A stretch of 53,994 nt of DNA from assembly GCA_963822945.1 (NCBI GenBank), contig CAWGJO010000038.1, forward strand, positions 1-53,994, written 5' to 3'. A program made the position numbers and the translations under genes. Below the pieces are notes generated by a model. The model saw only the letters and a list, made by a program, of their open reading frames with translations. It was not told the origin of the DNA and did no database searches. Source of the stretch: an uncultured Gemmatimonadaceae bacterium (lineage in GTDB: Bacteria > Gemmatimonadota > Gemmatimonadetes > Gemmatimonadales > Gemmatimonadaceae). Shown here one piece after another: positions 41,621-53,994 of the stretch (the stretch's first letter is position 1; each line of letters starts with the position of its first letter).

Positions 41621-44600
41621 CTACCACCCCGGCGCCAGCTGCACACCCACCACCCAGTTCTTCCCCGGGCGCTGGAACGGATGCGCGATGTAGGTCTCGA
41701 GAATCAGGTAGCCGAGCAGGTTGATACGCGTCGTGATGCCGGCGCTGAACACCGGAATGTGATCGACGCAATTCACGTACCCTGCCTGGGCCACCGCCGC
41801 CGGCTTCGAGCAGCTGGCCGGGATCTGATTGGCCGACGTCGCCCAACGGAAGTCCGGCGGCTGCGTGCTCGAGTAGGCGATGCCGCCGTCGAAGAACGGC
41901 GCGATCTCGACCGGCAGGAACGACGTCGGCAGGATGCCGAAGGCCGGGGAGCCGAACAGCGGAATGCGGAATTCCAGATTGAACACGTCGATGCGGCTGC
42001 CGAGCAGCCGGTCGAACACGGGGCAGGCGTTGGAGCCGGCGGCAGAGACGCATTCGTTGACTCCGAACGACCCGTAGCCGTACCCGCGGATGAGTGTCTC
42101 CTCACCCAGGTAGATGGGATAGATCTGCCCGTTGCCGTAGGCTTCGGCGTCGCGCCCGTAGCGGCCGTAGTGGAGCGCGCGTACGGCGAATGTGAACGGG
42201 TTGTCGAAGAAATACCGCCGGTAGTCGCCCAACAGTCCGGCGAACTGCAGCTGTCCGAGCGTCGGGTTGTACTCGATGCGCCACCGCTCGCCCGACACCG
42301 GTCCCACGTATGCCGAGAACGAATTGTCGCTCACCAGCGCGATGTCGGCCTGGGCGTAGTACGTGGACGGGTAGCTGGCGCCGGTCTGTCGCGACTCGGC
42401 CACCACCTGGTTGCCGACCAGCGTGAACTGGTCGATCTCCGTGTCGTACCCCAGCCGCGTGCCCGACACGCCGAGTTCGATCCGGCGCGTGGTGGAGAAG
42501 GGATACTGCGTGTTGAAGGCCAGTTGGTCGATGTAGATGCGCTGCAGAATCTGGTAGTAGTTGAGCGCCGGGATGTTGCCCGCGACCACCGTATCGGCCA
42601 GGCCGGTATAGCCGGTGAGATACGGAATGTGCTCGATGCCCAGTGACCAGTTCCATCGATGCTTGAGATTCAGATACTGCACGGCCCCGCCGATGTCCTT
42701 CATGGTGCCGTTGGCCTGGAGCACGGTGTAGATCTGCCGGTCGCTCAACTGGTCACCCCACAGGGCAGCGATGCCGCCCGCCACGCCGGTGCCGAAGTAG
42801 CCGCCGGTCTGCACGCCGATGCTCGGCTGGCTGATGGCGTCGAGCGAGAACGACGAGTGATAGGGGTGGATCGTGAAGTCGTTGCCCGACACCAGGCCGC
42901 GCTCCGGATCGGCGAGATACGCGGTGACCGTGTTGGTGCCCGGCAGGTCGCCCGGCGGCAGGATGCTGGCCACACTCACCGACTGCGTGGGCTGAACCGG
43001 AACGCCCACGGTGGCCGACGCGTCGAGTCCGTAGATGCCGTAGCTCTGACCCTGGAAGACCGTGAACAGCGTGCGGCCGGTGGTCGGCGAGACCGTGAGC
43101 GCCGGCGACGATTCAGTGATGCCGCTGACGCCGGTGGCCACCTTGGTCACCCGGGTCACCGCCCCGCTGGCCAGGTTGAGCCGGTAGATGTCGCTGAAGC
43201 CGTCCTGGTTGGAGATGAACAGCACGTCCTTTCCGCCCGGCGCGTATTGCGGGTTGATCTCCTTCGCATTGGGGAAGGGCGAGTACAACGTCACCGGGCC
43301 GCCGTTCACGCTGATCGTCCCGATCTGCAGCGGCGAGTAGCTCAGTTCCTGGAAGTTCGTGCCCGGCCCGCGGTCGGTGGCGAAGACGATCGTCTTGCCG
43401 TCCGGCGAGAACTCGGGCATCTCGTCCGCGTACCGGTCGTGGGTGAGCTGGTCCACCTTCCCCGTGCGCAGATCGAGCACGTACAGGTCGTCGATGCCGC
43501 CCGACATTCCCGACATCGCCATCAGGTTACCGTCGGGAGACCACGACACGGCATTCACCGCGCCCACGCCCGGGAGCGAGATCTTCCGTTCGATGTTCCC
43601 GTTCTCGACGTCCACGACGGCCACGTCGTTCTTGCCGTTCTCGTCGACGATGAACGCGAACTTCTTGCTGTCGGGCGACCACGCGCCGCTGGAGTTGATG
43701 AAGTTCAGGGCGTCGAAGTGCGGATCGCTCGACGGCGCCGCGAGCTTGCGGATGATCTTGCCCGTCACGGCGTCGGCCAGGTAGAGATCGAATCCGAAGA
43801 GCGAGCGTTTGCCGTTCGAGAAGAAGGCCACGTACTTCCCGTCGGGGCTGATCACCGGGCTGACGTTCTGATCTTCGGTCTTGCCGCCGGCGGCCACCAC
43901 CACCTGTCCCGCATCGTGCGGCTTGGTCCGCCCGACGAGCTGCGTGGTGTAGAGCGCCTTGTTCGCTGCCGCCCAGTCCTTACTCAGCGAATCGGGGGTC
44001 TCGCCGAGCACGCGCGTGATCGCGTTGTCGAGTCCCATGCGCAGCGACGTCCGGTACACGTCCACCACCGCGCGGTCGCCCCAGCGGCCGGCCACGTACG
44101 CCCACAACGCCTGCCCGTACCGGTAGGGGAAGAAACGGGGGTCGGTGTTGAGCTGCTTGATGGTCGGGAAGGAGTCGCGTTCCACCGCGTCGCGCATCCA
44201 CATGGCGGTCAGTTCGCTGTTGCGGCCCAGCGAGAAGTACTCGGCCATACCCTCGATCAGCCACCCCGGCAGCGTGCTCATTCGGGCGAGGCCGTTCGCG
44301 TCGCCGCTCTCGGCGATGTCGTACTGGAACACGTGGACCAACTCGTGCCCCAGTACGTGATCGGTCTCGGCGTAGCTGCTCTGGAAGGGCATCACCACGC
44401 GGGTGCGCAGCCCTTCCGTGACGCCCTGCTCACCCTGGCTGGGCGACTCGCTGACCACGTTCGTCTGCTCGAAGTCGGAGTGGTCGGCGTACAGGATGAT
44501 CGACTTGCGGTCGAATTGATGCGCGAACGTCTCGGAGTGGCGCACGTACCAACGCTCGGCCATGCGGCCGGCGTCGCGGGTGGCCAGCGACTCGGCCGGG

Positions 44601-44761
44601 TAGAAATAGAGGTCGAAGTGCGGGGTCTTGAGAATCCGGAAGTTGAAGGTCTGGTACTGGACCTTGTTACGCCCGAAGTACTGGGCCGACGCCGTCTGCA
44701 CTCCGCCGAACGTGAGAAGCGCGAGTACGAGTGCCGCCGGACGCGTGAGCAGTCGATTCAT
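41621..44761 (-). CDS. Secreted zinc-peptidase-like + PD40/TolB propeller + Omp85/BamA-type beta-barrel protein
   Basis: Signal peptide, YFGRNKVQY, HELVH...EGMAEY, repeated SPDGK, IRGYG motif and a C-terminal aromatic residue. Confidence 0.85.
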   Translation of the reverse strand: MNRLLTRPAALVLALLTFGGVQTASAQYFGRNKVQYQTFNFRILKTPHFDLYFYPAESLATRDAGRMAERWYVRHSETFAHQFDRKSIILYADHSDFEQTNVVSESPSQGEQGVTEGLRTRVVMPFQSSYAETDHVLGHELVHVFQYDIAESGDANGLARMSTLPGWLIEGMAEYFSLGRNSELTAMWMRDAVERDSFPTIKQLNTDPRFFPYRYGQALWAYVAGRWGDRAVVDVYRTSLRMGLDNAITRVLGETPDSLSKDWAAANKALYTTQLVGRTKPHDAGQVVVAAGGKTEDQNVSPVISPDGKYVAFFSNGKRSLFGFDLYLADAVTGKIIRKLAAPSSDPHFDALNFINSSGAWSPDSKKFAFIVDENGKNDVAVVDVENGNIERKISLPGVGAVNAVSWSPDGNLMAMSGMSGGIDDLYVLDLRTGKVDQLTHDRYADEMPEFSPDGKTIVFATDRGPGTNFQELSYSPLQIGTISVNGGPVTLYSPFPNAKEINPQYAPGGKDVLFISNQDGFSDIYRLNLASGAVTRVTKVATGVSGITESSPALTVSPTTGRTLFTVFQGQSYGIYGLDASATVGVPVQPTQSVSVASILPPGDLPGTNTVTAYLADPERGLVSGNDFTIHPYHSSFSLDAISQPSIGVQTGGYFGTGVAGGIAALWGDQLSDRQIYTVLQANGTMKDIGGAVQYLNLKHRWNWSLGIEHIPYLTGYTGLADTVVAGNIPALNYYQILQRIYIDQLAFNTQYPFSTTRRIELGVSGTRLGYDTEIDQFTLVGNQVVAESRQTGASYPSTYYAQADIALVSDNSFSAYVGPVSGERWRIEYNPTLGQLQFAGLLGDYRRYFFDNPFTFAVRALHYGRYGRDAEAYGNGQIYPIYLGEETLIRGYGYGSFGVNECVSAAGSNACPVFDRLLGSRIDVFNLEFRIPLFGSPAFGILPTSFLPVEIAPFFDGGIAYSSTQPPDFRWATSANQIPASCSKPAAVAQAGYVNCVDHIPVFSAGITTRINLLGYLILETYIAHPFQRPGKNWVVGVQLAPGW

Positions 44762-45066: not shown

Positions 45067-45498
45067 CTAGTCATCGTCCGGCCGCCGCTGCCGTTTACGC
45101 TCCGACCGCCGCCGCTTCTCCTGCAGCCGCCGTTCCACCGAGGCCCGGGTGGGTCTGGTGGCGCGCCGCTTCCGCGGCACCACCAGCGCCCGGCGCACGA
45201 TCGTCGCCAGCCGCGCCTCGGCGGCCTCGCGGTTCTGTGCCTGGCTCCGGCGTTCGCTGGCCACCACGCGAAGCGTCCCGTCGGCCGTGAGCCGCGACCG
45301 GAGCGCCTTCCGGAGCCGCTCGCGTTGCGCGTCGCTCAGCGCCCGCGACGTCTCGATGTTCCACGACAACTCCACGCGCGTGGACGACGTGTTTACGTGC
45401 TGCCCACCGGCGCCCCCGGCCCGCGAGGTCCGCGCATCCAGCTCCCGGCGCGGGATGGCGAGCGCCGCGCTCACCTCGAGATCAGCGCGCCCGGGCAT
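45067..45498 (-). CDS. arfB: Alternative ribosome rescue peptidyl-tRNA hydrolase
   Basis: SRAGGAGGQHVN, ERRSQAQNR, RRATRPTRAS..RRL.EK basic tail. Start codon uncertain. Confidence 0.93.
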   Translation of the reverse strand: MPGRADLEVSAALAIPRRELDARTSRAGGAGGQHVNTSSTRVELSWNIETSRALSDAQRERLRKALRSRLTADGTLRVVASERRSQAQNREAAEARLATIVRRALVVPRKRRATRPTRASVERRLQEKRRRSERKRQRRPDDD

Positions 45499-46351
45499 CG
45501 TGCTGCGCCCTCACCCTGTGCACCCGCACGGCCGCCACCCGGCGCCCGTCCATGGCCACGATCTCCAATTCGCCGCCGGGGTAGGGGGCCCGGTCGCCGA
45601 TGCGTGGCACCCGCCCCAGCCGGGCGAACGCATACCCCCCGATCGTCTGCCAGTCGCCGTCGGGAATGGGGATCTGGTACTCCCCGCGCACGTCGCGAAG
45701 CGACAGCGATCCCGCCAACTCGAGCACGCCGTCCGTTTCGATGGCCGACCGCACGGCGACGTCGTCTTCGTCGTTGATGTCGCCGATGACCTGTTCGACG
45801 AGGTCCTCCAGCGTCACCAGACCCGCCGTGCCCCCGAATTCGTCGAGCACGATGGCGATGTGCGCGCGCGTCTTGCGCAGATCGTCGAGCACCCGCTGTG
45901 CCGGCCGGGTGTCGGGCACGAAGAGGGTCTCGCGCATGTGGCGGGCCAGTGTGAAGGGCACCCCCGCCTCGTCCAGCCACAGATCCTTGGCCAGGAACAC
46001 GCCCACGATGTCGTCCAGCGAGTCCGCGTACACGGGGTACCGTGAAAACCGTTCCCGGCGCAGCAGTTCGCGCACCTCGTCCTCGGACGCGCTGAGGGGC
46101 AGGGCGACTATATCCGTGCGTGGGCGCATGACGTCACGCACCCGCTTGGCCCGGAACTGCAGCACGTCCGCCAGCATCCGGTTGCCCGGGTCGGGCGTGC
46201 CGTTCCCCCGCGGGGTCGCCATCAGGCGCTCCAGCGTGTCCGGCCCCGGCAGCGACGTCGCGGCGGGTGGCGGATCGTCGGCGAGCCCGAACAGGCTCAG
46301 GATGCGGTGCCGAATGCGCCGGGCAAGGCCGCGGGCAGGCCTGTCGCTCAT
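45482..46351 (-). CDS. CBS-pair + CorC_HlyC domain protein (CorC-like, no TM domain)
   Basis: VRDVMRPRTDI, FSRYPVY, VLDEFGGTAGLVTLEDLVEQVIGDINDE and TIGGY. Confidence 0.9.
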   Translation of the reverse strand: MSDRPARGLARRIRHRILSLFGLADDPPPAATSLPGPDTLERLMATPRGNGTPDPGNRMLADVLQFRAKRVRDVMRPRTDIVALPLSASEDEVRELLRRERFSRYPVYADSLDDIVGVFLAKDLWLDEAGVPFTLARHMRETLFVPDTRPAQRVLDDLRKTRAHIAIVLDEFGGTAGLVTLEDLVEQVIGDINDEDDVAVRSAIETDGVLELAGSLSLRDVRGEYQIPIPDGDWQTIGGYAFARLGRVPRIGDRAPYPGGELEIVAMDGRRVAAVRVHRVRAQHDARAR

Positions 46352-46521: not shown

Positions 46522-48183
46522 ATGTTGGACCCACGCCATCTGTTGCGCTGGGTCTACATCGGCCGGCTGTGCCTCGCCAGCGCGATCTTCATCGCCGCGG
46601 TGGTGAACTGGACTCAGCAACAGACCGACCCCAGCAAGCTCACCCTGGTGGCCATCGCCTTCGCGATGACCACCGTGGTCACGGTGGCGTCGTTCGCGTA
46701 CAGCGAAATATACCGAAAGCCGCTGGGCAAGACGTTCCTCTATCTGCAGAGCATCACCGATCTGCTGCTCGTGACCGTGGTGGTCCATGTGACCCCCGGG
46801 GGCCCGGACAGCGGCAGTGTCTCGCAGTTCTCGGCGCTCTACATCCTCGTCATCGCGACTACCACTCTGATGCTGCCGGTGGGCGGCGGGTTGCTGGTCG
46901 CCGCGCTGGGAATCGTGCTGTTCTTTGCGGACACGGCGTTCGGCGCGAATGCCGACATGCACAACGGCATCGTCTGGGCGCAGCTCGGGGTGTTTGCCGC
47001 GGTGTCGTTCGGATGCGCGGTGGTGGCCTCGCAGCTGCAGAAGGCGGGTGAGGGGAAGGAGGTGCTGGCGGCCGCCCTGGAGCACGCGCGCCTGGAGGCC
47101 GACGACATCCTGCGAAACATCCAGAGCGGTGTGCTGACGGTCGACTCCGGCGGCAACCTGATGTACGCCAATCCGAAGGCGCAGGCCCTGCTGGGCCTGG
47201 AACTGGAGACGATGCTCGATCGGCCCGTCCTCGATCGGATCGCGGCGGCGGCGCCCGAGCTGGCGCGGGCGCTCGACCAGTCGGTGAGCAACCGTGTCCG
47301 AACCACGCGGGGGGAGGGGGTCGTGACGGTGGACGGCGTTTCGTTTCCGATCGGGGTGACGACCACTTATATGGAAGGCGACGGCCGGCGCACCGACCGC
47401 ACGGCGACGGCGATCTTCCAGGACATCTCCGACCAGAAGCGGATGGATACGCTCCGTCTGCGCGCCGAGCGGCTGGAAGGCGTGGCCGAACTGAGTGCGT
47501 CGCTGGCGCACGAGATCAAGAATCCGCTGGCGTCGATCCGGAGTTCGGTGGAGCAGTTGGGGCGGCTCCCCCGCCAGACCGACGACGAGCGGACGTTGAG
47601 CGAGCTGGTGATGCGCGAGTCGGACCGGCTGTCGCGGCTGCTGACGGAATTCCTCGATTTCGCGCGCGTGCGCGTGTCGCACACCGGGTCGGTGAACATG
47701 GCCGACCTCGTGCGCGAAGCGGTGCAGCTGGCCGACGCCCATCCCGATCGCGGAGAGGTGGACATCGAATGCACGGCGCCCGACGACGGCTCGGTGGTGG
47801 TGCAGGGCGACCAGGACCTGCTGCATCGCGCGGTGTTCAACTTGCTGCTGAACGCCGCGCAGGCCTCGCCGGCGGGTGGCACGGTGCGCGTGGAAGTCGC
47901 GGTCGCGCAACCCGAGCAGCTGCCGCTGGGCGTGCGCAATGAAGGGGGAAGCGTCTCGCTTCGCGTGAGCGACCAGGGCTCCGGCATCCCGATGGAGATC
48001 CGCGACCGATTGTTCGACCCCTTCTTCACCACGAAACCCGGTGGCAGCGGGCTTGGTCTGGCCGTCGTCCATCGCGCCATCGAAGCGCACCGCGGCATGG
48101 TGTTCCTCGACAGCAGCCCACGCGGCACGACGTTCACCGTCATTCTGCCGCGCACCCAGACTCCCAATGGAGATCGCGCGTGA
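46522..48183 (+). CDS. pilS: PilS-type membrane sensor histidine kinase
   Basis: About 6 TM segments, PAS-like region, LAHEIKNPL, NLLLNA, FDPFFTTK and GSGLGL; PilS call from the PilR and pilin context. Confidence 0.85.
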   Translation: MLDPRHLLRWVYIGRLCLASAIFIAAVVNWTQQQTDPSKLTLVAIAFAMTTVVTVASFAYSEIYRKPLGKTFLYLQSITDLLLVTVVVHVTPGGPDSGSVSQFSALYILVIATTTLMLPVGGGLLVAALGIVLFFADTAFGANADMHNGIVWAQLGVFAAVSFGCAVVASQLQKAGEGKEVLAAALEHARLEADDILRNIQSGVLTVDSGGNLMYANPKAQALLGLELETMLDRPVLDRIAAAAPELARALDQSVSNRVRTTRGEGVVTVDGVSFPIGVTTTYMEGDGRRTDRTATAIFQDISDQKRMDTLRLRAERLEGVAELSASLAHEIKNPLASIRSSVEQLGRLPRQTDDERTLSELVMRESDRLSRLLTEFLDFARVRVSHTGSVNMADLVREAVQLADAHPDRGEVDIECTAPDDGSVVVQGDQDLLHRAVFNLLLNAAQASPAGGTVRVEVAVAQPEQLPLGVRNEGGSVSLRVSDQGSGIPMEIRDRLFDPFFTTKPGGSGLGLAVVHRAIEAHRGMVFLDSSPRGTTFTVILPRTQTPNGDRA

Positions 48184-49562
48184 GCACCAGAGCTGCCGAC
48201 CCGCGCCCCACCGTACTCGTCGTGGACGACGAGTCGGGGATCCTAGAATCGCTGCGCATCCTGCTCCGCAACGAGGGATTCGAGCCCAGCCTGGCCAACG
48301 GTGGCAAGCAGGGCCTCGAGATGCTGCGCGAGATGCGCCCCGACATCGTGCTCACCGACATCCGCATGCCGGGTGCGACGGGCGTGGAGATCCTCGCGGC
48401 GGCGCGCCAGAACGATTCCGACGTGCCGGTAATCCTGATGACGGCGCAGGCCACGCTGCAGTCGGCGATGCAGGCGGTGAACGAGGGCGCCTTCTATTAC
48501 ATCCAGAAGCCGTTTCGCAACGACGAGCTGATCGCGATTCTCAAGCGCGCCGCCGAGCACCGGCAGCTGCGCGTGGAGAACAAGTCGCTCAAGCAGGAGA
48601 TCAAGCGGCGCCAGGGTGAGCACGGTGACCGCCCGGTGGGCACCAGCAAGCCGTGGATGGAGGTGCTGCGCCTGGCCGAGACGGTGGCACCCACGGAGAG
48701 CACGGTGCTCATCCAGGGCGAATCGGGGACCGGTAAGGAGGTCGTGGCGCGATACATTCACCAACTGTCGGCGCGTACGAGCGGTCCCTTCCTGTCCATC
48801 AACTGTGGCGCGCTGCCCGAAAGCCTGTTGGAGAGCGAACTCTTCGGCCACGTGAAGGGCGCGTTCACGGGCGCCGTCAAGGACCGGTCGGGCCTGTTCG
48901 CGGCCGGCGCCACGGGCAGCTTCTTCCTCGACGAGATCGGGGAGACGACCCCGGCCACGCAGGTCAAGCTGCTGCGCGTGTTGCAGCACCGGGAGGTGAT
49001 CCCGGTGGGCGCCACCGACGCCGAGCCCATCGACGTCCGCCTGATCGCCGCCACGAACCGCGATCTCGAAGAGGAGATCAAGGGCGGTCGGTTCCGGAGC
49101 GATCTCTACTATCGACTCAACGTGATCCTCTTCCACCTGCCGCCGCTGCGGCAGCGGACGGAGGATATCCCGCTGCTCATCGACCACTTTCTGGGGCGCA
49201 TCGCGGCCGCACGCGGCGAGGAGCCCAAGCATCTCGACGACGACGCGCTCGGCGCCACGCAGGCGTACGCCTGGCCGGGCAACGTGCGCGAACTCGAGAA
49301 CGCGCTGGAACGCGCGGCCATCCTCACGCCCGGCGACACCATCAAGGTGGACGCGCTCCCGGAGCGCATCACCGCGCCGCGCTCCGAGCCGCTGGTCACC
49401 TCCCGCACGCCTCCCAACCCCACGCTCGAGGCCATCGAACGCGCCTACATCATGTGGGTGCTGCAGAGCGAGAGCGGCAACAAGTCGAGAACGGCCGAAG
49501 TGCTCGGCATCGATCCCTCGACGCTCTATCGCAAACTGTCGCGCTACGGGGTCGAGGTTTGA
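48180..49562 (+). CDS. pilR: PilR-type sigma54-dependent response regulator
   Basis: REC domain, GESGTGKE, ESELFGH, GAFTGA, FRSDLYYRL, WPGNVRELEN and Fis HTH; GTGA overlap with pilS. Confidence 0.9.
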   Translation: MSTRAADPRPTVLVVDDESGILESLRILLRNEGFEPSLANGGKQGLEMLREMRPDIVLTDIRMPGATGVEILAAARQNDSDVPVILMTAQATLQSAMQAVNEGAFYYIQKPFRNDELIAILKRAAEHRQLRVENKSLKQEIKRRQGEHGDRPVGTSKPWMEVLRLAETVAPTESTVLIQGESGTGKEVVARYIHQLSARTSGPFLSINCGALPESLLESELFGHVKGAFTGAVKDRSGLFAAGATGSFFLDEIGETTPATQVKLLRVLQHREVIPVGATDAEPIDVRLIAATNRDLEEEIKGGRFRSDLYYRLNVILFHLPPLRQRTEDIPLLIDHFLGRIAAARGEEPKHLDDDALGATQAYAWPGNVRELENALERAAILTPGDTIKVDALPERITAPRSEPLVTSRTPPNPTLEAIERAYIMWVLQSESGNKSRTAEVLGIDPSTLYRKLSRYGVEV

Positions 49563-51133
49563 CGGAGCCGCCGCCCGCGTCCGATTCCGCGCGGTGGCGT
49601 CCGCCGGCCCGGTTGGCCGGGTGGGCGGCGCCCGTCGTCGTCCTCGCCCTCGCCGCCCGGGCCATGAATCCGTATCCCGTGGGCGCGCTCTACGACGACG
49701 CGGTGTACGTGGAGCTCGGCAAGGCGCTGGCCAGTGGGGCCGGGCTGCACTACCTGCACCTGCCGGGCACGCCGGCGGCCACGCACTTCCCGCCCGGTTA
49801 TCCGCTGCTGCTGGCCGCGCTGTGGCGCCTCTGGCCGGCCTTTCCGGCCAACGTGTTCCTGTTCAAGCTGGTCAACGCGCTGTTGCTAGCGGTCGCCGCC
49901 GCATGGATGGCCCGCATGGCGCGCGACCGCTTCGGGTGCGCGCCGTGGAAGGCCGCGGCGGTGGCGGTGGTGCTCTCGATCGGTGTGCCGTCGCTCGTGT
50001 TGAGCGACGTCGTGATGTCGGAACCGCTCTTTCTCGCCCTCGCGCTGCCGGCGCTGCTGCTCGCGGAGCGTGCGGTGGAGGCGGATGCGGGGCTGGCCCG
50101 TGCGCTGCTCGCCGGGGTGCTCGCCGGCATCGCCACGCTCGTGCGCACGCAGGGCGTGGCGCTCGTGGGCGCGCTCGTACTGGTGCAACTGCTGCGCCGC
50201 CGGTATCGCGCGGCCGCCGTCAGTGCGGGGGCGGCGATCGTGGTCGTCGCGCCGTGGACCTGGTGGGTCCACGCCCACGCCGGCGTGCTCCCCGCTCCCG
50301 CCCGCGGGATCTACGGACCCTATCTCACGTGGTACGTCGATGCCCTGCGCGCCGGCGGGGTTCCCTTCGTGGCGGGCGTACTTGGCGGAACACTACGCGC
50401 GAGCACGACCATGCTCCAGATCATGCTCTCGGTCGTGCCGGCGCACGCTGCCGGAATCGTCGGCCTCGTGCTGATGTGTCCGCTCGCCGCGCTCGGCGCA
50501 TGGCGCGCCCGTTCGGCGACACCGGTGACGCTGATCTTCGTCGCGCTCTTCGTGGCCATCACCCTGCTGTGGCCGTATTCACCGGCGCGGTTCCTGTTCG
50601 CCGTCTGGCCGCTGCTCGTGGCGCTGCCGGCGGCCGGGCTGGTCGCCCTCTGGCGATGGGAATTGCCGTTCCCCGCACCACGCCGGTTGCGCATCGCGCT
50701 GCTCGCGCTCGCCTTCGTGCCGGTGGCCGGATACGCCGTGTACAACGTGCGGGGCTACCACGGCCAGTGGTGGGAGTCGATTCCCCGTGAACGCGGGTTG
50801 CAGTTGCGCACGGTCATCCGGGCGGTCCGGCAGACCATGCCCGCCGACGCCGTGGTCTGCGGCACGGATGATGCCGCTATCTACCTGTACACCGGGCGCC
50901 AGGCAGTGCCGTTTGCACCGCTCCGGGCAACCGACTTCACCCATGTGCCGACCAAGGCCCAGGCCGCCCGGGATCTTCGCGCCATCCTCGCGGCCTATCA
51001 CCCGGATCGCATTGTGGTCACGAACAGAACGGAACTCGACGTGGCCGACGCGCTTGCCGATCAGCATCCGCCGCTGCTGGCATTGACCGACAGCTTCCCC
51101 GGCGGCTTCATCTACGCCCCGACGACACCATGA
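49559..51133 (+). CDS. GT-C fold membrane glycosyltransferase (ArnT/PMT-like)
   Basis: TTGA overlap with pilR; LYDDAVY acidic pair after TM1, FPPGYPLLLA, MSEPLF, many TM segments and a soluble C-terminal domain. Confidence 0.8.
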   Translation: MTEPPPASDSARWRPPARLAGWAAPVVVLALAARAMNPYPVGALYDDAVYVELGKALASGAGLHYLHLPGTPAATHFPPGYPLLLAALWRLWPAFPANVFLFKLVNALLLAVAAAWMARMARDRFGCAPWKAAAVAVVLSIGVPSLVLSDVVMSEPLFLALALPALLLAERAVEADAGLARALLAGVLAGIATLVRTQGVALVGALVLVQLLRRRYRAAAVSAGAAIVVVAPWTWWVHAHAGVLPAPARGIYGPYLTWYVDALRAGGVPFVAGVLGGTLRASTTMLQIMLSVVPAHAAGIVGLVLMCPLAALGAWRARSATPVTLIFVALFVAITLLWPYSPARFLFAVWPLLVALPAAGLVALWRWELPFPAPRRLRIALLALAFVPVAGYAVYNVRGYHGQWWESIPRERGLQLRTVIRAVRQTMPADAVVCGTDDAAIYLYTGRQAVPFAPLRATDFTHVPTKAQAARDLRAILAAYHPDRIVVTNRTELDVADALADQHPPLLALTDSFPGGFIYAPTTP

Positions 51134-51918
51134 CCATGCCCGACCTCAGCGGTTCCGCCAGCGTTCCGTCCACGGCCCCGACGCATGCCGCGTCACCACA
51201 GACTCCACGCACGCCGCTCGATTCGCATGCCTGGCGGCTGTCGGTGCTCATTCCCGTCTACAACGAACGGAACACCATCGATGCGGTGCTCGATCTCGTC
51301 CACGCGACGCCGATGCCCAAGGAGATCGTGTGCGTCGACGATTGCTCGACCGATGGGACCCGCGATCGCCTCCAGGAACTCCACGCCGCCGGCCGGATCC
51401 ATCGTTTGATTCTCCAGCCGAAGAACAGCGGCAAGGGCGCGGCCATCCGCGCGGCGCTCGCCGCCAGCACCGGCGAAGTGGTGCTCGTGCAGGACGCCGA
51501 CCTCGAATACACGCCCGCTGACTGGCCCGGGCTGTTGAAGCCGATCATCGACGGCCGCGCCGACGCGTGCTTCGGGTCCCGCTTCCTCGGCGGCCCGCAT
51601 CGCGTGCTCTACTACTGGCACTCGGTGGGCAACCGGGCGCTCACGACGTTCAGCAACATGCTCACCAACCTGAACCTCACCGACATGGAAACATGTTACA
51701 AAGCCATGCGGGGAGATCTGGCACGATCGTTGCGCCTGACCGCCAATCGATTCGGTTTCGAACCGGAAGTCACGGCCCGCCTGGCGCGGGCACGGGCCCG
51801 CATCTTCGAGGTCCCGATCAGCTATTCCGGCCGCACGTACGCCGAGGGCAAGAAGATCAACTGGAAGGATGGCGTGGCGGCATTCTGGCACATCGTCAAA
51901 TACAACCTGTTCGTATGA
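51130..51918 (+). CDS. GT2 glycosyltransferase, DPM1/polyprenol-phosphate sugar synthase-like
   Basis: LSVLIPVYNE, VDDCSTDGT, GKGAA, QDADLEY, TDMETCYK and FGFEPE. Confidence 0.92.
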   Translation: MTMPDLSGSASVPSTAPTHAASPQTPRTPLDSHAWRLSVLIPVYNERNTIDAVLDLVHATPMPKEIVCVDDCSTDGTRDRLQELHAAGRIHRLILQPKNSGKGAAIRAALAASTGEVVLVQDADLEYTPADWPGLLKPIIDGRADACFGSRFLGGPHRVLYYWHSVGNRALTTFSNMLTNLNLTDMETCYKAMRGDLARSLRLTANRFGFEPEVTARLARARARIFEVPISYSGRTYAEGKKINWKDGVAAFWHIVKYNLFV

Positions 51919-53650
51919 AACGCCGCACCTGGTGGCTCCTCGCCGGCAGCATCGCGCTGCTGGCCCTCGCTGCGTCGGCCACCGGACTCCCCAACCGGTA
52001 CGCGTACGACGACGTCTTCGTGATCCAGCGGGACGCGCGCGTGCACACGCTCGTCCACTGGTGGCACTTCTTCGCCGATTCATACTGGTCCAAGGGTTGG
52101 GGGGGGATGGCTACCGCCCGCTCACGATTCTCGGATTCGCCGTGCAGTGGGCCCTGGGGCACGGGGCGCCGCTCATCTTCCACGTGGTCAACGTGGTGCT
52201 CTACATGGCCGTCTGCGTGGCCGTGTTCTGGCTGTTGATGGGCGTGCTGCCCAGCGCGCCCGCCTGGATCGCCGCGGCGCTCTTCGCCGTGCACCCGCTG
52301 CACGTGGAGGCGGTGGCGAACGTGGTGGGCCAGTCCGAACTCACCGTCGCGCTGTTGCTCACCCTCGCCATGGGGCTGTACGTGTACGGGCGCCAGCTGG
52401 GCCCGCTCTCACTGGGTCGAAAGATCGCCATCGCGGCGATGTACGTCGCCGCGATGCTGTTCAAGGAGCATGGCATCGTGCTCGTGGCGCTCGTCGTCGT
52501 CGCCGAGATCACGGTGGTCCGCGATCCCCGTCCGCTCCGCGCGCGCCTGGTGGAAATGCGACCCTTCGTACTCGGCCTCACGGCGCTCGCCTTGTGCTTT
52601 CTGTGGGCGCGGGACACCGTGCTCAGCGGGCGCTTCACCGGCTTCCGGCCGTTCGTGCCCTTCCAGGGGCTGCACCTGTCCACGCCCGATCGGATTCTCA
52701 CCATGATCGGCGTGGCGCCCCAGTGGGGCCGACTCTTCGTGTGGCCGGCCCATCTCACCACCGAGTACTCGCCGCCGTGGATTCCGATTGCCCAGGGCCC
52801 CAGCTACACCCAGCTGCCGGGGCTGCTGCTCATGATCGGCGTCATCGGGTTGTTCTTCGCCACGCGGCGCAAGCTGCCCGCCGCGAGCTTCGGCCTGGGC
52901 TGGCTGATCGTCGCCATGTCCCCCGTGAGCAATCTCGTGCTGCCGGCGGGGTTCCTGATCGCCGAGCGCACGCTGTTCTTTCCCAGCGTCGGCGTGGTGA
53001 TCTTCGCGGGTGCGCTCATCCCGATCGCCTACGAGTGGCTCGCGCCGCGCCGTCTCCAGCTCGCCGGCGCGGCGGCCGTAGCGCTCCTGCTCGGCGCCGG
53101 AATCTGGCGGAGCGCGAAGCGGCAGATGCTCTGGCACGACGACGATACCCTGTTCAAGCAGGAAGTCATCGACACGCCCGACAGCTACCGGACCCACTTC
53201 ATGCTCGGCGCCTGGTATATGCAGAACAAGCGCATGCGTGACGGCGAGATCGAGTACAGCAAGGGCATGAAGCTCTTCCCGTACGACCCGTTCATGGCGT
53301 TCAGCTTCGGCGAAGACTACCGCCGCTGGGGCATCTGCAAGCCGGCGATCAACCTCTACCGGTGGGCCATCGGCCTCGATTCCAGCATCGTCGTCGCCTG
53401 GCCCCAGCTGGCCGACTGTCTGCTGATCGACAAACAATACGACGCGGCCAAGAAGGCGGCGGTGGCGGCGCTGCGCCACGGCAGCCCTGTCATCGACATG
53501 CACAACATCCTGGTGTGGGCCGATAGCGCGAAGGCTCAGTTGGCGGCCAGGGGCGCTGCTCCGGCGGGGTCTGGCAAAACGCCACAAACCGTGCAAAAGC
53601 CCGAACCGAAGGCGATGTCGGACACGGCTAAAGAAAGTACAAAGCGTTGA
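51915..53650 (+). CDS. TMTC/DUF1736-like protein O-glycosyltransferase with C-terminal TPRs, frameshifted at a G8 run (52099-52106)
   Basis: ATGA overlap; YAYDDVFVI in the first frame, then YRPLT, FHVVNVVL, LFAVHPLHVEAVANVVG, FKEHGI and IAERTLFFPS in the next. One extra G joins them as WGGDGYRP. Confidence 0.85.
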
Positions 53651-53681
53651 CGAGTAATCACATAGGGGACTTTGCGAGGCA

Positions 53682-53696
53682 TGGCATCTCCATTGC
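53682..53696 (+). promoter_or_regulatory. Sigma54 (-24/-12) promoter of the pilin gene
   Basis: TGGCATCTCCATTGC = GG-N10-GC with consensus TGGCA...TTGC, about 76 nt upstream of the pilin ATG and downstream of a sigma54 activator gene. Confidence 0.88.
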
Positions 53697-53772
53697 CATC
53701 AAGAATCCATTGAGATTCCGAAGATGGGATAACGCCTACGCTCGTCCACCAAGGTACAGGAGACCCCCACTC

Positions 53773-53994
53773 ATGCTGCAGAATCGCAAGGGCTTCACGC
53801 TCATCGAACTTCTGATTGTGGTCGTGATCATCGGCATTCTGGCCGCGATCGCGATTCCGAAGTTCGCCAACACGAAGGACAAGGCCTACATCACCGCCAT
53901 GAAGTCCGACCTGCGGAACATGGTGACTGCTGAGGAAGCGTTCTTCTCCGATTCTTCCCAGTACTCGACGGTCATGGACTCGGTCCATGTCAAC
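53773..53994 (+). CDS. pilA: Type IV major pilin, 5' part (runs off the right edge)
   Basis: Not in the ORF track; hand translation MLQNRKG|FTLIELLIVVVIIGILAAIAIPKFANTKDKAYITAMKSDLRNMVTAEEAFFSDSSQYSTVMDSVHVN; prepilin G|F..E5 motif and AGGAG RBS. Confidence 0.95.
   Translation, partial: MLQNRKGFTLIELLIVVVIIGILAAIAIPKFANTKDKAYITAMKSDLRNMVTAEEAFFSDSSQYSTVMDSVHVN

Follow-up and report, generated by a model that had tools for sequence, protein, structure and literature searches.

A candidate pilin O-glycosylation cassette with a TMTC/TfpW-family glycosyltransferase between pilSR and pilA of Gemmatimonadetes

Introduction

A variable gene cassette lying between the pilus regulator genes pilSR and the pilin gene pilA in Gemmatimonadetes probably O-glycosylates the type IV pilin, as a variant of the TfpW-type systems of Pseudomonas, from which the general mechanism is already known. 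It is described here in a stretch of 53,994 nucleotides (hereafter the window), namely positions 1 to 53,994 of contig CAWGJO010000038.1 (forward strand) of assembly GCA_963822945.1 (hereafter G000) from an uncultured Gemmatimonadaceae bacterium. The cassette encodes a membrane glycosyltransferase of the GT-C type (GTC1), a soluble GT2 glycosyltransferase and the main enzyme, a GT-C protein with TPRs that is homologous to the animal TMTC proteins. The evidence comes from the position of the main enzyme beside the major pilin, its sequence kinship with TfpW-type proteins and the neighbouring gene for a likely donor synthase. A full-text search, with most subscription journals outside its coverage, returned no paper on a pilin glycosylation cassette of Gemmatimonadota.

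The cassette and its link to pilA

The chain of pilS, pilR, a 524-aa membrane protein, a GT2 and a TPR membrane protein had been read from the letters alone in an earlier note on this DNA. It is confirmed between the pilus regulators and pilA, with all four start/stop overlaps of 4 nt located at 48180 (GTGA), 49559 (TTGA), 51130 (ATGA) and 51915 (ATGA); TTG at 49559 is a plausible start codon of GTC1. The sigma54 promoter and type IV pilin placed after this chain were likewise found. The features are the following.

46522–48183, plus strand: pilS, sensor kinase with 6TM_PilS, PAS, HisKA and HATPase_c domains
48180–49562, plus strand: pilR, sigma54-dependent response regulator with receiver, sigma54 activator and HTH_8 domains; GTGA overlap with pilS
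49559–51133, plus strand: second GT-C, GTC1, 524 aa from TTG 49559; DD at 49694–49699; no TPR
51130–51918, plus strand: GT2, soluble, of the polyprenyl-phosphate sugar synthase type (PF00535); DAD at 51493–51501; zero predicted membrane segments
51915–52103, plus strand: TMTC/TfpW-family GT-C, N-terminal piece with the first helix and the DD motif at 52008–52013
52099–52106, plus strand: G8 run with a shift of the reading frame, likely an assembly error
52106–53650, plus strand: TMTC/TfpW-family GT-C, C-terminal piece with YRP, HPLHVEAV (52292), KEH (52463), W-x6-P-x8-P (52724), AERTL (52961) and TPRs (~53174–53452)
53682–53696, plus strand: sigma54 −24/−12 element, TGGCA-N6-TTGC, 77 nt 5′ of the pilA start
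53773–53994, plus strand: pilA, major type IVa pilin, cut by the window end, with the rest on contig C45

Of 53 related loci, 32 have a comparable −24/−12 site at most 200 nt 5′ of the pilin, compared with 1.2 (maximum 4) in shuffles. The cassette would share a transcript with pilSR, and pilA would be driven by its own sigma54 promoter.

Matches to the profile of the main enzyme were found in 103 of 201 genomes of the phylum, few candidates per genome being scored in these large searches. In the class Gemmatimonadetes, 57 best-match loci were compared, 20 of them (10 same-genus) from the first search and 37 taken at one per genus from among the listed matches. These loci are kin and not independent, so that counts overstate the number of events; the unpublished genome G022 enters the tallies only. 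A major pilin is present in 53 of the 57 loci, in 51 of them no more than 1.1 kb away from the membrane domain; the linkage to pilA, for which the earlier note had proposed a synteny survey, is thus conserved. Many loci hold two or three tandem TMTC-like copies, and their number loosely follows that of the pilin genes (rho 0.42, n=53, kin not independent).

The main enzyme as a TMTC-family homologue

The earlier description of the TPR protein as TMTC-like stands, and by sequence it is a true TMTC-family homologue. A profile restricted to the membrane domain and built from Gemmatimonadota sequences (A3) retrieves a Mytilus TMTC1-like protein (E 1.5e-62), rodent TMTC1 and beetle TMTC4, with E-values from 1.5e-62 to 2.7e-55. 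Against the Gemmatimonadota profile, animal TMTCs score 206–230 bits and a TfpW-type protein 113, and six other GT-Cs together with GTC1 at most 18. Searches with another profile (A1) were discarded as evidence of remote homology, their results being swamped by near relatives and TPRs. The TMTC motifs are widespread among 105 Gemmatimonadota domains: DD in 103, [YW]RP in 90, HPxHxExV in 97, KE in 86 and AER in 90.

In the available text of PMC7801869, TMTCs have 11 transmembrane segments plus TPRs, with motifs M1 DD, M2 SHKSYRP, M4 KET(Q), DW and M7 ERxxY, and prokaryotic homologues are called uncharacterised. Compared with this set, DD, YRP, KE and ER are retained, and SHK and DW are lost, DW being replaced by EY or DY; M7 of the window copy reads ERTLF. 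The likeness to animal TMTC1–4 extends to the order of membrane GT-C domain and TPRs and to the motifs DD, YRP, FAVHPxH, KE and ERxx, but the bacterial proteins are shorter (~578 aa with few TPRs, against 790–1010 aa in animals). Animal TMTCs add single sugars, in a strand-specific manner, to β-strands of Ig-like cadherin domains, according to the available part of PMC13123603. TPR-based acceptor recognition has been shown for the related architecture of TMEM260, as far as the accessible text of the source goes.

General domain models are of little help here. Of the models proposed in the earlier note, Glycos_transf_2 matches the GT2, but DUF1736 (Pfam, above gathering score) and PMT_2 match no window protein, and neither Pfam nor NCBIfam gives a match at cut-off for the two GT-Cs of the window. 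The family assignment of the TMTC-like gene therefore rests on its relatives. No relative matches DUF1736 at cut-off, and weak matches were seen in 6 of 51 (E ≤0.01, best 9.6e-4); a scan of five genomes gave none, in a run in which no control gave a signal either. Among Atlas entries for the TMTC-like enzyme, a DUF1736 eukaryote cluster stands at 0.92. In a separate JGI listing, 4 of 120 listed homologues carry the label 'protein O-mannosyl-transferase', and the source names of homologues agree with an origin in Gemmatimonadaceae. Homology does not earn the name of mannosyltransferase, and the main enzyme is referred to as a putative transferase. A plasmid collection held no TMTC-like match.

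Since the gene is frameshifted in the window (see below), structural work was done on an intact orthologue of 92% identity (L031). Its model (pLDDT 89) consists of a GT-C membrane domain followed by TPRs, with VIA Z scores of 21.1 for STT3, 20.9 for AglB, 20.1 for Pmt2 and 18.9 for ArnT, entries at most 1 apart being treated as tied; TPR proteins were matched too, and the C-terminal piece of the window itself gives a TPR match. A PDB sequence search with the TMTC-like profile returned TPR matches only, and no TMTC is found among the PDB sequence or fold matches of the main enzyme. The earlier claim of two GT-C membrane proteins is supported for both by fold matches and family relatives.

Kinship with TfpW and the pilin as probable substrate

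TfpW is a protein of 646 aa with 11 transmembrane segments, a DDX motif, a C-terminal TPR domain and a YX6PFX7P motif, encoded directly after pilA; it glycosylates Ser/Thr of pilin, mainly at T64/T66, and needs its DD motif to do so (10.1101/2020.04.19.049825). It was said to polymerise and transfer without a partner, and no flippase was identified (10.1101/2020.04.19.049825). Its glycan blocks phages, according to the available part of 10.1101/150227, and the group IV cassette has the order pilA, tfpW, tfpX in the accessible text of PMC12369383.

For the comparison, TfpW-type proteins were picked by gene order and motif (L239/L264) rather than from the PA7 record. In L264, pilA is followed by a 622-aa match to A3 and then by TfpX/TfpZ above the NCBIfam cut-off. 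An hhalign comparison of the Gemmatimonadota and TfpW-type profiles gave 99.9% (E 2.4e-34, 346 columns), with DD, YRP, HP..E, KE, the proline motif and ER aligned, and the TfpW-type profile in turn matches rodent TMTC1 at ~60 bits. Among Pseudomonadaceae, 39 of 401 genomes match A3, and a pilin lies less than 700 nt upstream in 28 of the 30 loci fetched, the other two being contig fragments; 7 of these 30 carry the exact YX6PFX7P motif. No TMTC/TfpW-like match was found in 80 coaE loci of Pseudomonas (fluorescens group). By sequence, TfpW-type proteins belong to the same family as the main enzyme. The earlier statement that no bacterial TMTC has a characterised substrate does not survive, since TfpW is published as acting on pilin (10.1101/2020.04.19.049825) and TfpW-type proteins share the family. 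The sequence tie between this pilin glycosylase type and the human TMTC family was met in no paper found by the full-text search, though preprint supplements could contain one.

The cassette would nevertheless work like TfpW, the pilin D-arabinofuranosyltransferase of Pseudomonas strains with group IV pilins (Pa5196, PA7), without being TfpW proper. Both share a homologous GT-C membrane domain with DD in the first outer loop, C-terminal TPRs, a gene beside pilA and a proline motif (YX6PFX7P aligns with W-x6-P-x8-P), and a dedicated flippase has been identified in neither. However, the gene precedes pilA here and forms part of the pilSR chain, whereas tfpW follows pilA together with tfpX. A GT2 synthase is present, and no TfpX, DPPR synthase or DprE1 orthologue was found in G000. 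The exact motif occurs in 0 of 105 Gemmatimonadota sequences (the aligned variant W/Y-x6-P-x8-P in 37 of 51), the tree clade is separate and a second GT-C family is an optional addition.

The relation between the three groups was approached with two quick unrooted trees, one of 107 rows under LG+G4, thinned by leaving out alternate 'other bacteria' rows, and one of 48 rows under a mixture model, in which the animal rows are those found with the Gemmatimonadota profile. The pilin-linked Gemmatimonadetes clade, three animal TMTCs and a few unnamed proteins fall on one side of a branch (SH-aLRT 97 and 96), with TfpW-type and other Pseudomonas proteins on the opposite side in both trees. In the approximately unbiased (AU) test, Gemmatimonadetes and TfpW as one group are not rejected (p 0.20), nor are all pilA-adjacent groups as one (p 0.06). 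A closer kinship of the Gemmatimonadetes enzymes with animal TMTCs than with TfpW is suggested as a lead only.

The Pseudomonadaceae loci also show that a modular cassette design is common to both phyla. In L255, L258, L259, L260 and L262, varied donor modules follow the TfpW-type genes, one made of a GtrB-like GT2, a small GtrA-like gene and a second membrane protein, the other of a DPPR synthase, DprE1 and an AftB-like GT-C. A second Pseudomonadaceae clade of this enzyme family (L222–L251, EHRNY type) lies directly after pilA and apart from TfpW proper in the tree.

The probable donor synthase

The GT2 matches Glycos_transf_2 (E 4e-33). Its best PDB match is the archaeal, Pyrococcus-type DPMS 5mlz (E 4e-16), followed by ArnC; the best NCBIfam model is AglJ (E 2e-32), below its cut-off like every other curated model. 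The earlier label 'DPM1-like' does not establish mannose as the sugar, the nearest solved relative being a DPMS but the nearest NCBIfam model AglJ. Like the polyprenol-phosphate sugar synthases (archaeal DPMS, AglJ, ArnC, GtrB and PpgS), the protein has a GT2 domain with a DAD motif; unlike them, it has no C-terminal membrane or GtrA part. The GT2 gene accompanies 43 of the 57 TMTC loci and all three TMTC-less loci with another GT-C, and is found in none of the 14 pilS–pilA loci without a GT-C. A tblastn search of G000 (88% complete) found no DPPR synthase and no TfpX, and one weak partial match to DprE1 at 24% identity. No D-arabinose donor genes having turned up, a polyprenyl-phosphate sugar made by the GT2 is the likely donor.

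In agreement with the earlier remark that no GtrA-type flippase is visible in the locus, GtrA (PF04138) was detected in none of five genomes (G000 and four congeners) in a scan that recovered 8 of 14 controls and did not cover ArnE/F-type carriers. The missing flippase is not fatal to the proposal, because the TfpW preprint identified none either (10.1101/2020.04.19.049825). What the proposed pathway has in common with the en-bloc pilin O-oligosaccharyltransferases TfpO/PglL is that pilin Ser/Thr would receive the glycan from a lipid carrier on the periplasmic side and, for TfpO, the place beside pilA. No cassette protein has a Wzy_C domain, Wzy_C genes lying elsewhere in G000, and the predicted donor is one sugar linked through a monophosphate instead of a pre-assembled unit linked through pyrophosphate.

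The second GT-C and the order of action

GTC1, though likewise a GT-C, belongs to a different family from TMTC. In 24 relatives, an acidic DD lies in the first outer loop, with D46 invariant and D47 in at least 90%; Pfam matches are to PMT_2 in 5 of 24, GT87 in 3 and GT22 in 1. The protein of the window matches NF047440 weakly, hhalign against the TMTC profile reaches 56% only and a PDB sequence search found no match. Its model is of low confidence (pLDDT 57) and too poor for detail; the top Foldseek matches are the GT-C folds STT3, AftA and PglB.

The earlier note proposed a stepwise order in which the TMTC-like enzyme initiates and GTC1 extends; taken strictly, GTC1 would be required to lengthen the first sugar on the pilin into a di- or oligosaccharide. 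Such a relay would fit the chaining of both GT-C genes with the GT2 in the window and their co-occurrence in 27 of 57 loci, as well as the GT87 and GT22 matches of GTC1 relatives, these being families of glycan-extending enzymes; some Pseudomonas TfpW-type loci also have a second, AftB-like GT-C. The single sugars added by animal TMTCs (available text of PMC13123603) would fit it as well. Yet GTC1 is absent from 30 of 57 TMTC loci, and two nearly complete genomes, G030 (100%) and G176 (99%), have two GTC1 genes and a GT2 in the slot without any TMTC-like match at E 1e-3, all candidates being scored. TfpW, moreover, is reported to polymerise and transfer alone (10.1101/2020.04.19.049825). That GTC1 is often absent and able to stand without TMTC argues against a fixed initiator–extender pair, and an obligatory relay is considered rather unlikely, although GTC1 may extend the glycan where both occur.

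A frame break in the window copy

The earlier note took the TMTC-like gene for one intact frame, but it is frameshifted in the assembly. The frame that begins at 51915 leaves the family sequence at the G8 run and stops at 52238, and the remaining 514 aa are read in a different frame. The shift is very probably an assembly error. Both parts stand in one frame in 29 of 29 other loci, the long G tract is kept in none of them and congeners interrupt the run by synonymous changes; among 55 other genes of G000 tested, four other clear frame breaks were found, a further one being a low-complexity artefact. These observations speak against true inactivation of the gene in this strain through G-run slippage, whether as phase variation or as a pseudogene. 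This is improbable, even though the break falls in one of just 30 G/C runs of at least 8 in the genome and pilin glycosylation genes of Neisseria are known to vary in phase through poly-G tracts. That phase variation is conserved in the family is ruled out, since the G tract is not. The other apparent frameshifts of G000 (C20:115384–116407, C20:121384–122435, C26:50367–52089 and C36:79721–80973) call for caution with the broken genes of this assembly.

Proposed mechanism and alternatives

In the proposed pathway, the soluble GT2 would load a nucleotide sugar onto polyprenyl phosphate at the cytoplasmic face, a hexose or N-acetylhexosamine being likelier than arabinose, and the lipid-sugar would reach the other side of the membrane by a route other than GtrA. 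At the periplasmic face of the inner membrane, the TMTC/TfpW-family enzyme, with its DD loop and TPRs in the periplasm, would add single sugars to Ser/Thr of the pilin while this is anchored in the membrane; a plausible place is the loop that follows the long helix (mature residues ~52–63), near the main TfpW sites T64/T66. GTC1 would be an optional second enzyme using the same lipid donor, parallel action being likelier than obligatory extension. The benefit would likely be masking of the pilus from phage, as published for TfpW. The sugar, the sites, the order of action and the function are inferred here. Co-folding of the intact orthologue with its own pilin scored 0.00, without controls, and was used neither way.

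Several observations weigh against this reading. The gene of the window is broken in the assembly, and the contigs of eight public runs do not span 52099–52106. No profile match was found in 98 of 201 phylum genomes (about half). Among 20 pilin loci of such no-match genomes, 17 include pilS, and 13 of these 17 have only pilR between pilS and pilA; the modification is therefore dispensable. The GT2 is absent from 14 of the 57 TMTC loci. Three loci (L037, L039 and L061) have the TMTC gene without a pilin, a fourth (L067) ending at a contig edge, and in G010 the pilA genes are located elsewhere. Eleven of 13 secondary copies have no nearby pilin (2 are linked), and beyond the class, all 10 loci of five genomes lack a nearby pilin, several of them lying on short contigs; the family therefore also serves other acceptors. 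A lone GTC1 paralogue lies on contig C27 of G000 beside an O-antigen-ligase-like (Wzy_C) gene. Finally, pilin Ser/Thr content barely tracks the cassette: the Ser/Thr-rich stretch noted earlier is present but hardly special, Ser plus Thr amounting to 0.249 beside a cassette (n=49) and 0.222 beside an empty slot (n=13; p=0.046, uncorrected for kinship), which makes it a weak marker of glycosylated pilins.

The unlinked copies would suit a general system of periplasmic or surface protein O-glycosylation, with pilin as one substrate or with minor pilins, PilQ or Ig-domain adhesins as the real targets. So would the Ig-like acceptor domains of animal TMTCs (available text of PMC13123603), the presence of an Ig-domain gene after pilQ in congeners and the persistence of the gene in the pilSR–pilMNOPQ cluster of L037 and L039 although pilA is gone. 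This is held to be improbable in view of the place of the main enzyme directly beside the major pilin in two distant phyla and separate tree clades, the TfpW precedent and the relation between copy number and pilin number. It is more improbable still that the GT-Cs act on glycolipids or polysaccharides of the envelope (lipid A, lipopolysaccharide or exopolysaccharide) and that the pilA-side position is an insertion hot-spot. The slot does also receive methyltransferases, other GT-Cs, Wzx, GT4s and a spermidine-synthase-like membrane protein, the GTC1 paralogue adjoins the Wzy_C gene and GTC1 relatives match PMT_2, a model that also covers ArnT. The TPR enzyme, in contrast, groups by its bit scores with the protein-acting TMTC and TfpW and apart from other GT-Cs. 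Envelope decoration is easier to credit to GTC1 than to the TMTC-like enzyme. Pilin glycosylation by a TfpW-type variant is thus retained as the probable function.

The pilin, other slot contents and neighbouring genes

The window cuts pilA at residue 74, and contig C45 gives the full 129-aa prepilin with one disulfide pair. Positions 1–297 of C45 (reverse) and 53698–53994 of the window overlap by 297 nt in pilA at 98% identity, with an L/F difference at the pilin N-terminus; the mismatch reflects either a duplicated pilA or residual assembly errors. On C45, the remainder of pilA is followed by a second kinase/regulator pair, minor pilins and pilMNOPQ, in the same order as in congeners. A second, orphan pilin lies at C20:794745–795128 of G000, and G026 and G088 have 13 and 8 pilin matches dispersed over the genome.

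Besides the 13 empty slots, the 17 pilS loci of no-match genomes include two with GTC1 twice and a GT2, one with the spermidine-synthase-like membrane protein and one with another GT-C and a GT2 beside pilins. The spermidine-synthase-like protein (~1020–1030 aa, 10–11 membrane segments; L069:3177–6233, L111:10922–14017, L135:10423–13491 and L047:3–2342) fills or borders the pilR–pilA slot, in L111 without a GT-C, and has a homologue on C27 of G000; it is possibly another pilin modifier. A third membrane family, c18 (640–710 aa, no Pfam match), is present in 19 of 57 cassettes (e.g. L046:5586–7517) and once with a GT2 but no TMTC (L119); its homologues in G000 are at C24:10742–12877 and C20:125060–126545. 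The former belongs, together with two GT2s, a GT4 and an 818-aa membrane protein, to a further envelope glycosylation cluster (C24:10742–21137), which adjoins genes that are presumably rpoN-like, to judge from the sequence start.

Upstream of pilS in the window, three minus-strand genes are kept in congeners: a peptidase/β-propeller outer-membrane-type protein (41621–44761), an ArfB-like RF-1 protein (45067–45498) and a CorC-like CBS protein (45482–46351).

Implications

A broader view is put forward tentatively and is thought rather doubtful, namely that TfpW and the animal TMTCs form one family whose ancestral bacterial job was type IV pilin glycosylation. The Gemmatimonadetes branch would then be among the bacterial groups nearest animal TMTC1–4, using a DPM1-like polyprenyl-phosphate hexose, possibly mannose, on a folded β-sheet pilin. 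If true, the cassette would offer a bacterial model of cadherin-type O-mannosylation made of three genes, in which tandem paralogues split sites as TMTC2 and TMTC3 split cadherin strands. Acceptor recognition by TMTCs becomes testable in a small bacterial member whose candidate substrate and candidate donor synthase are encoded next to it. For the organisms themselves, the findings suggest an exchangeable cassette by which roughly half of a phylum abundant in soil and sediment varies the coat of its pili, probably as a defence against phage.

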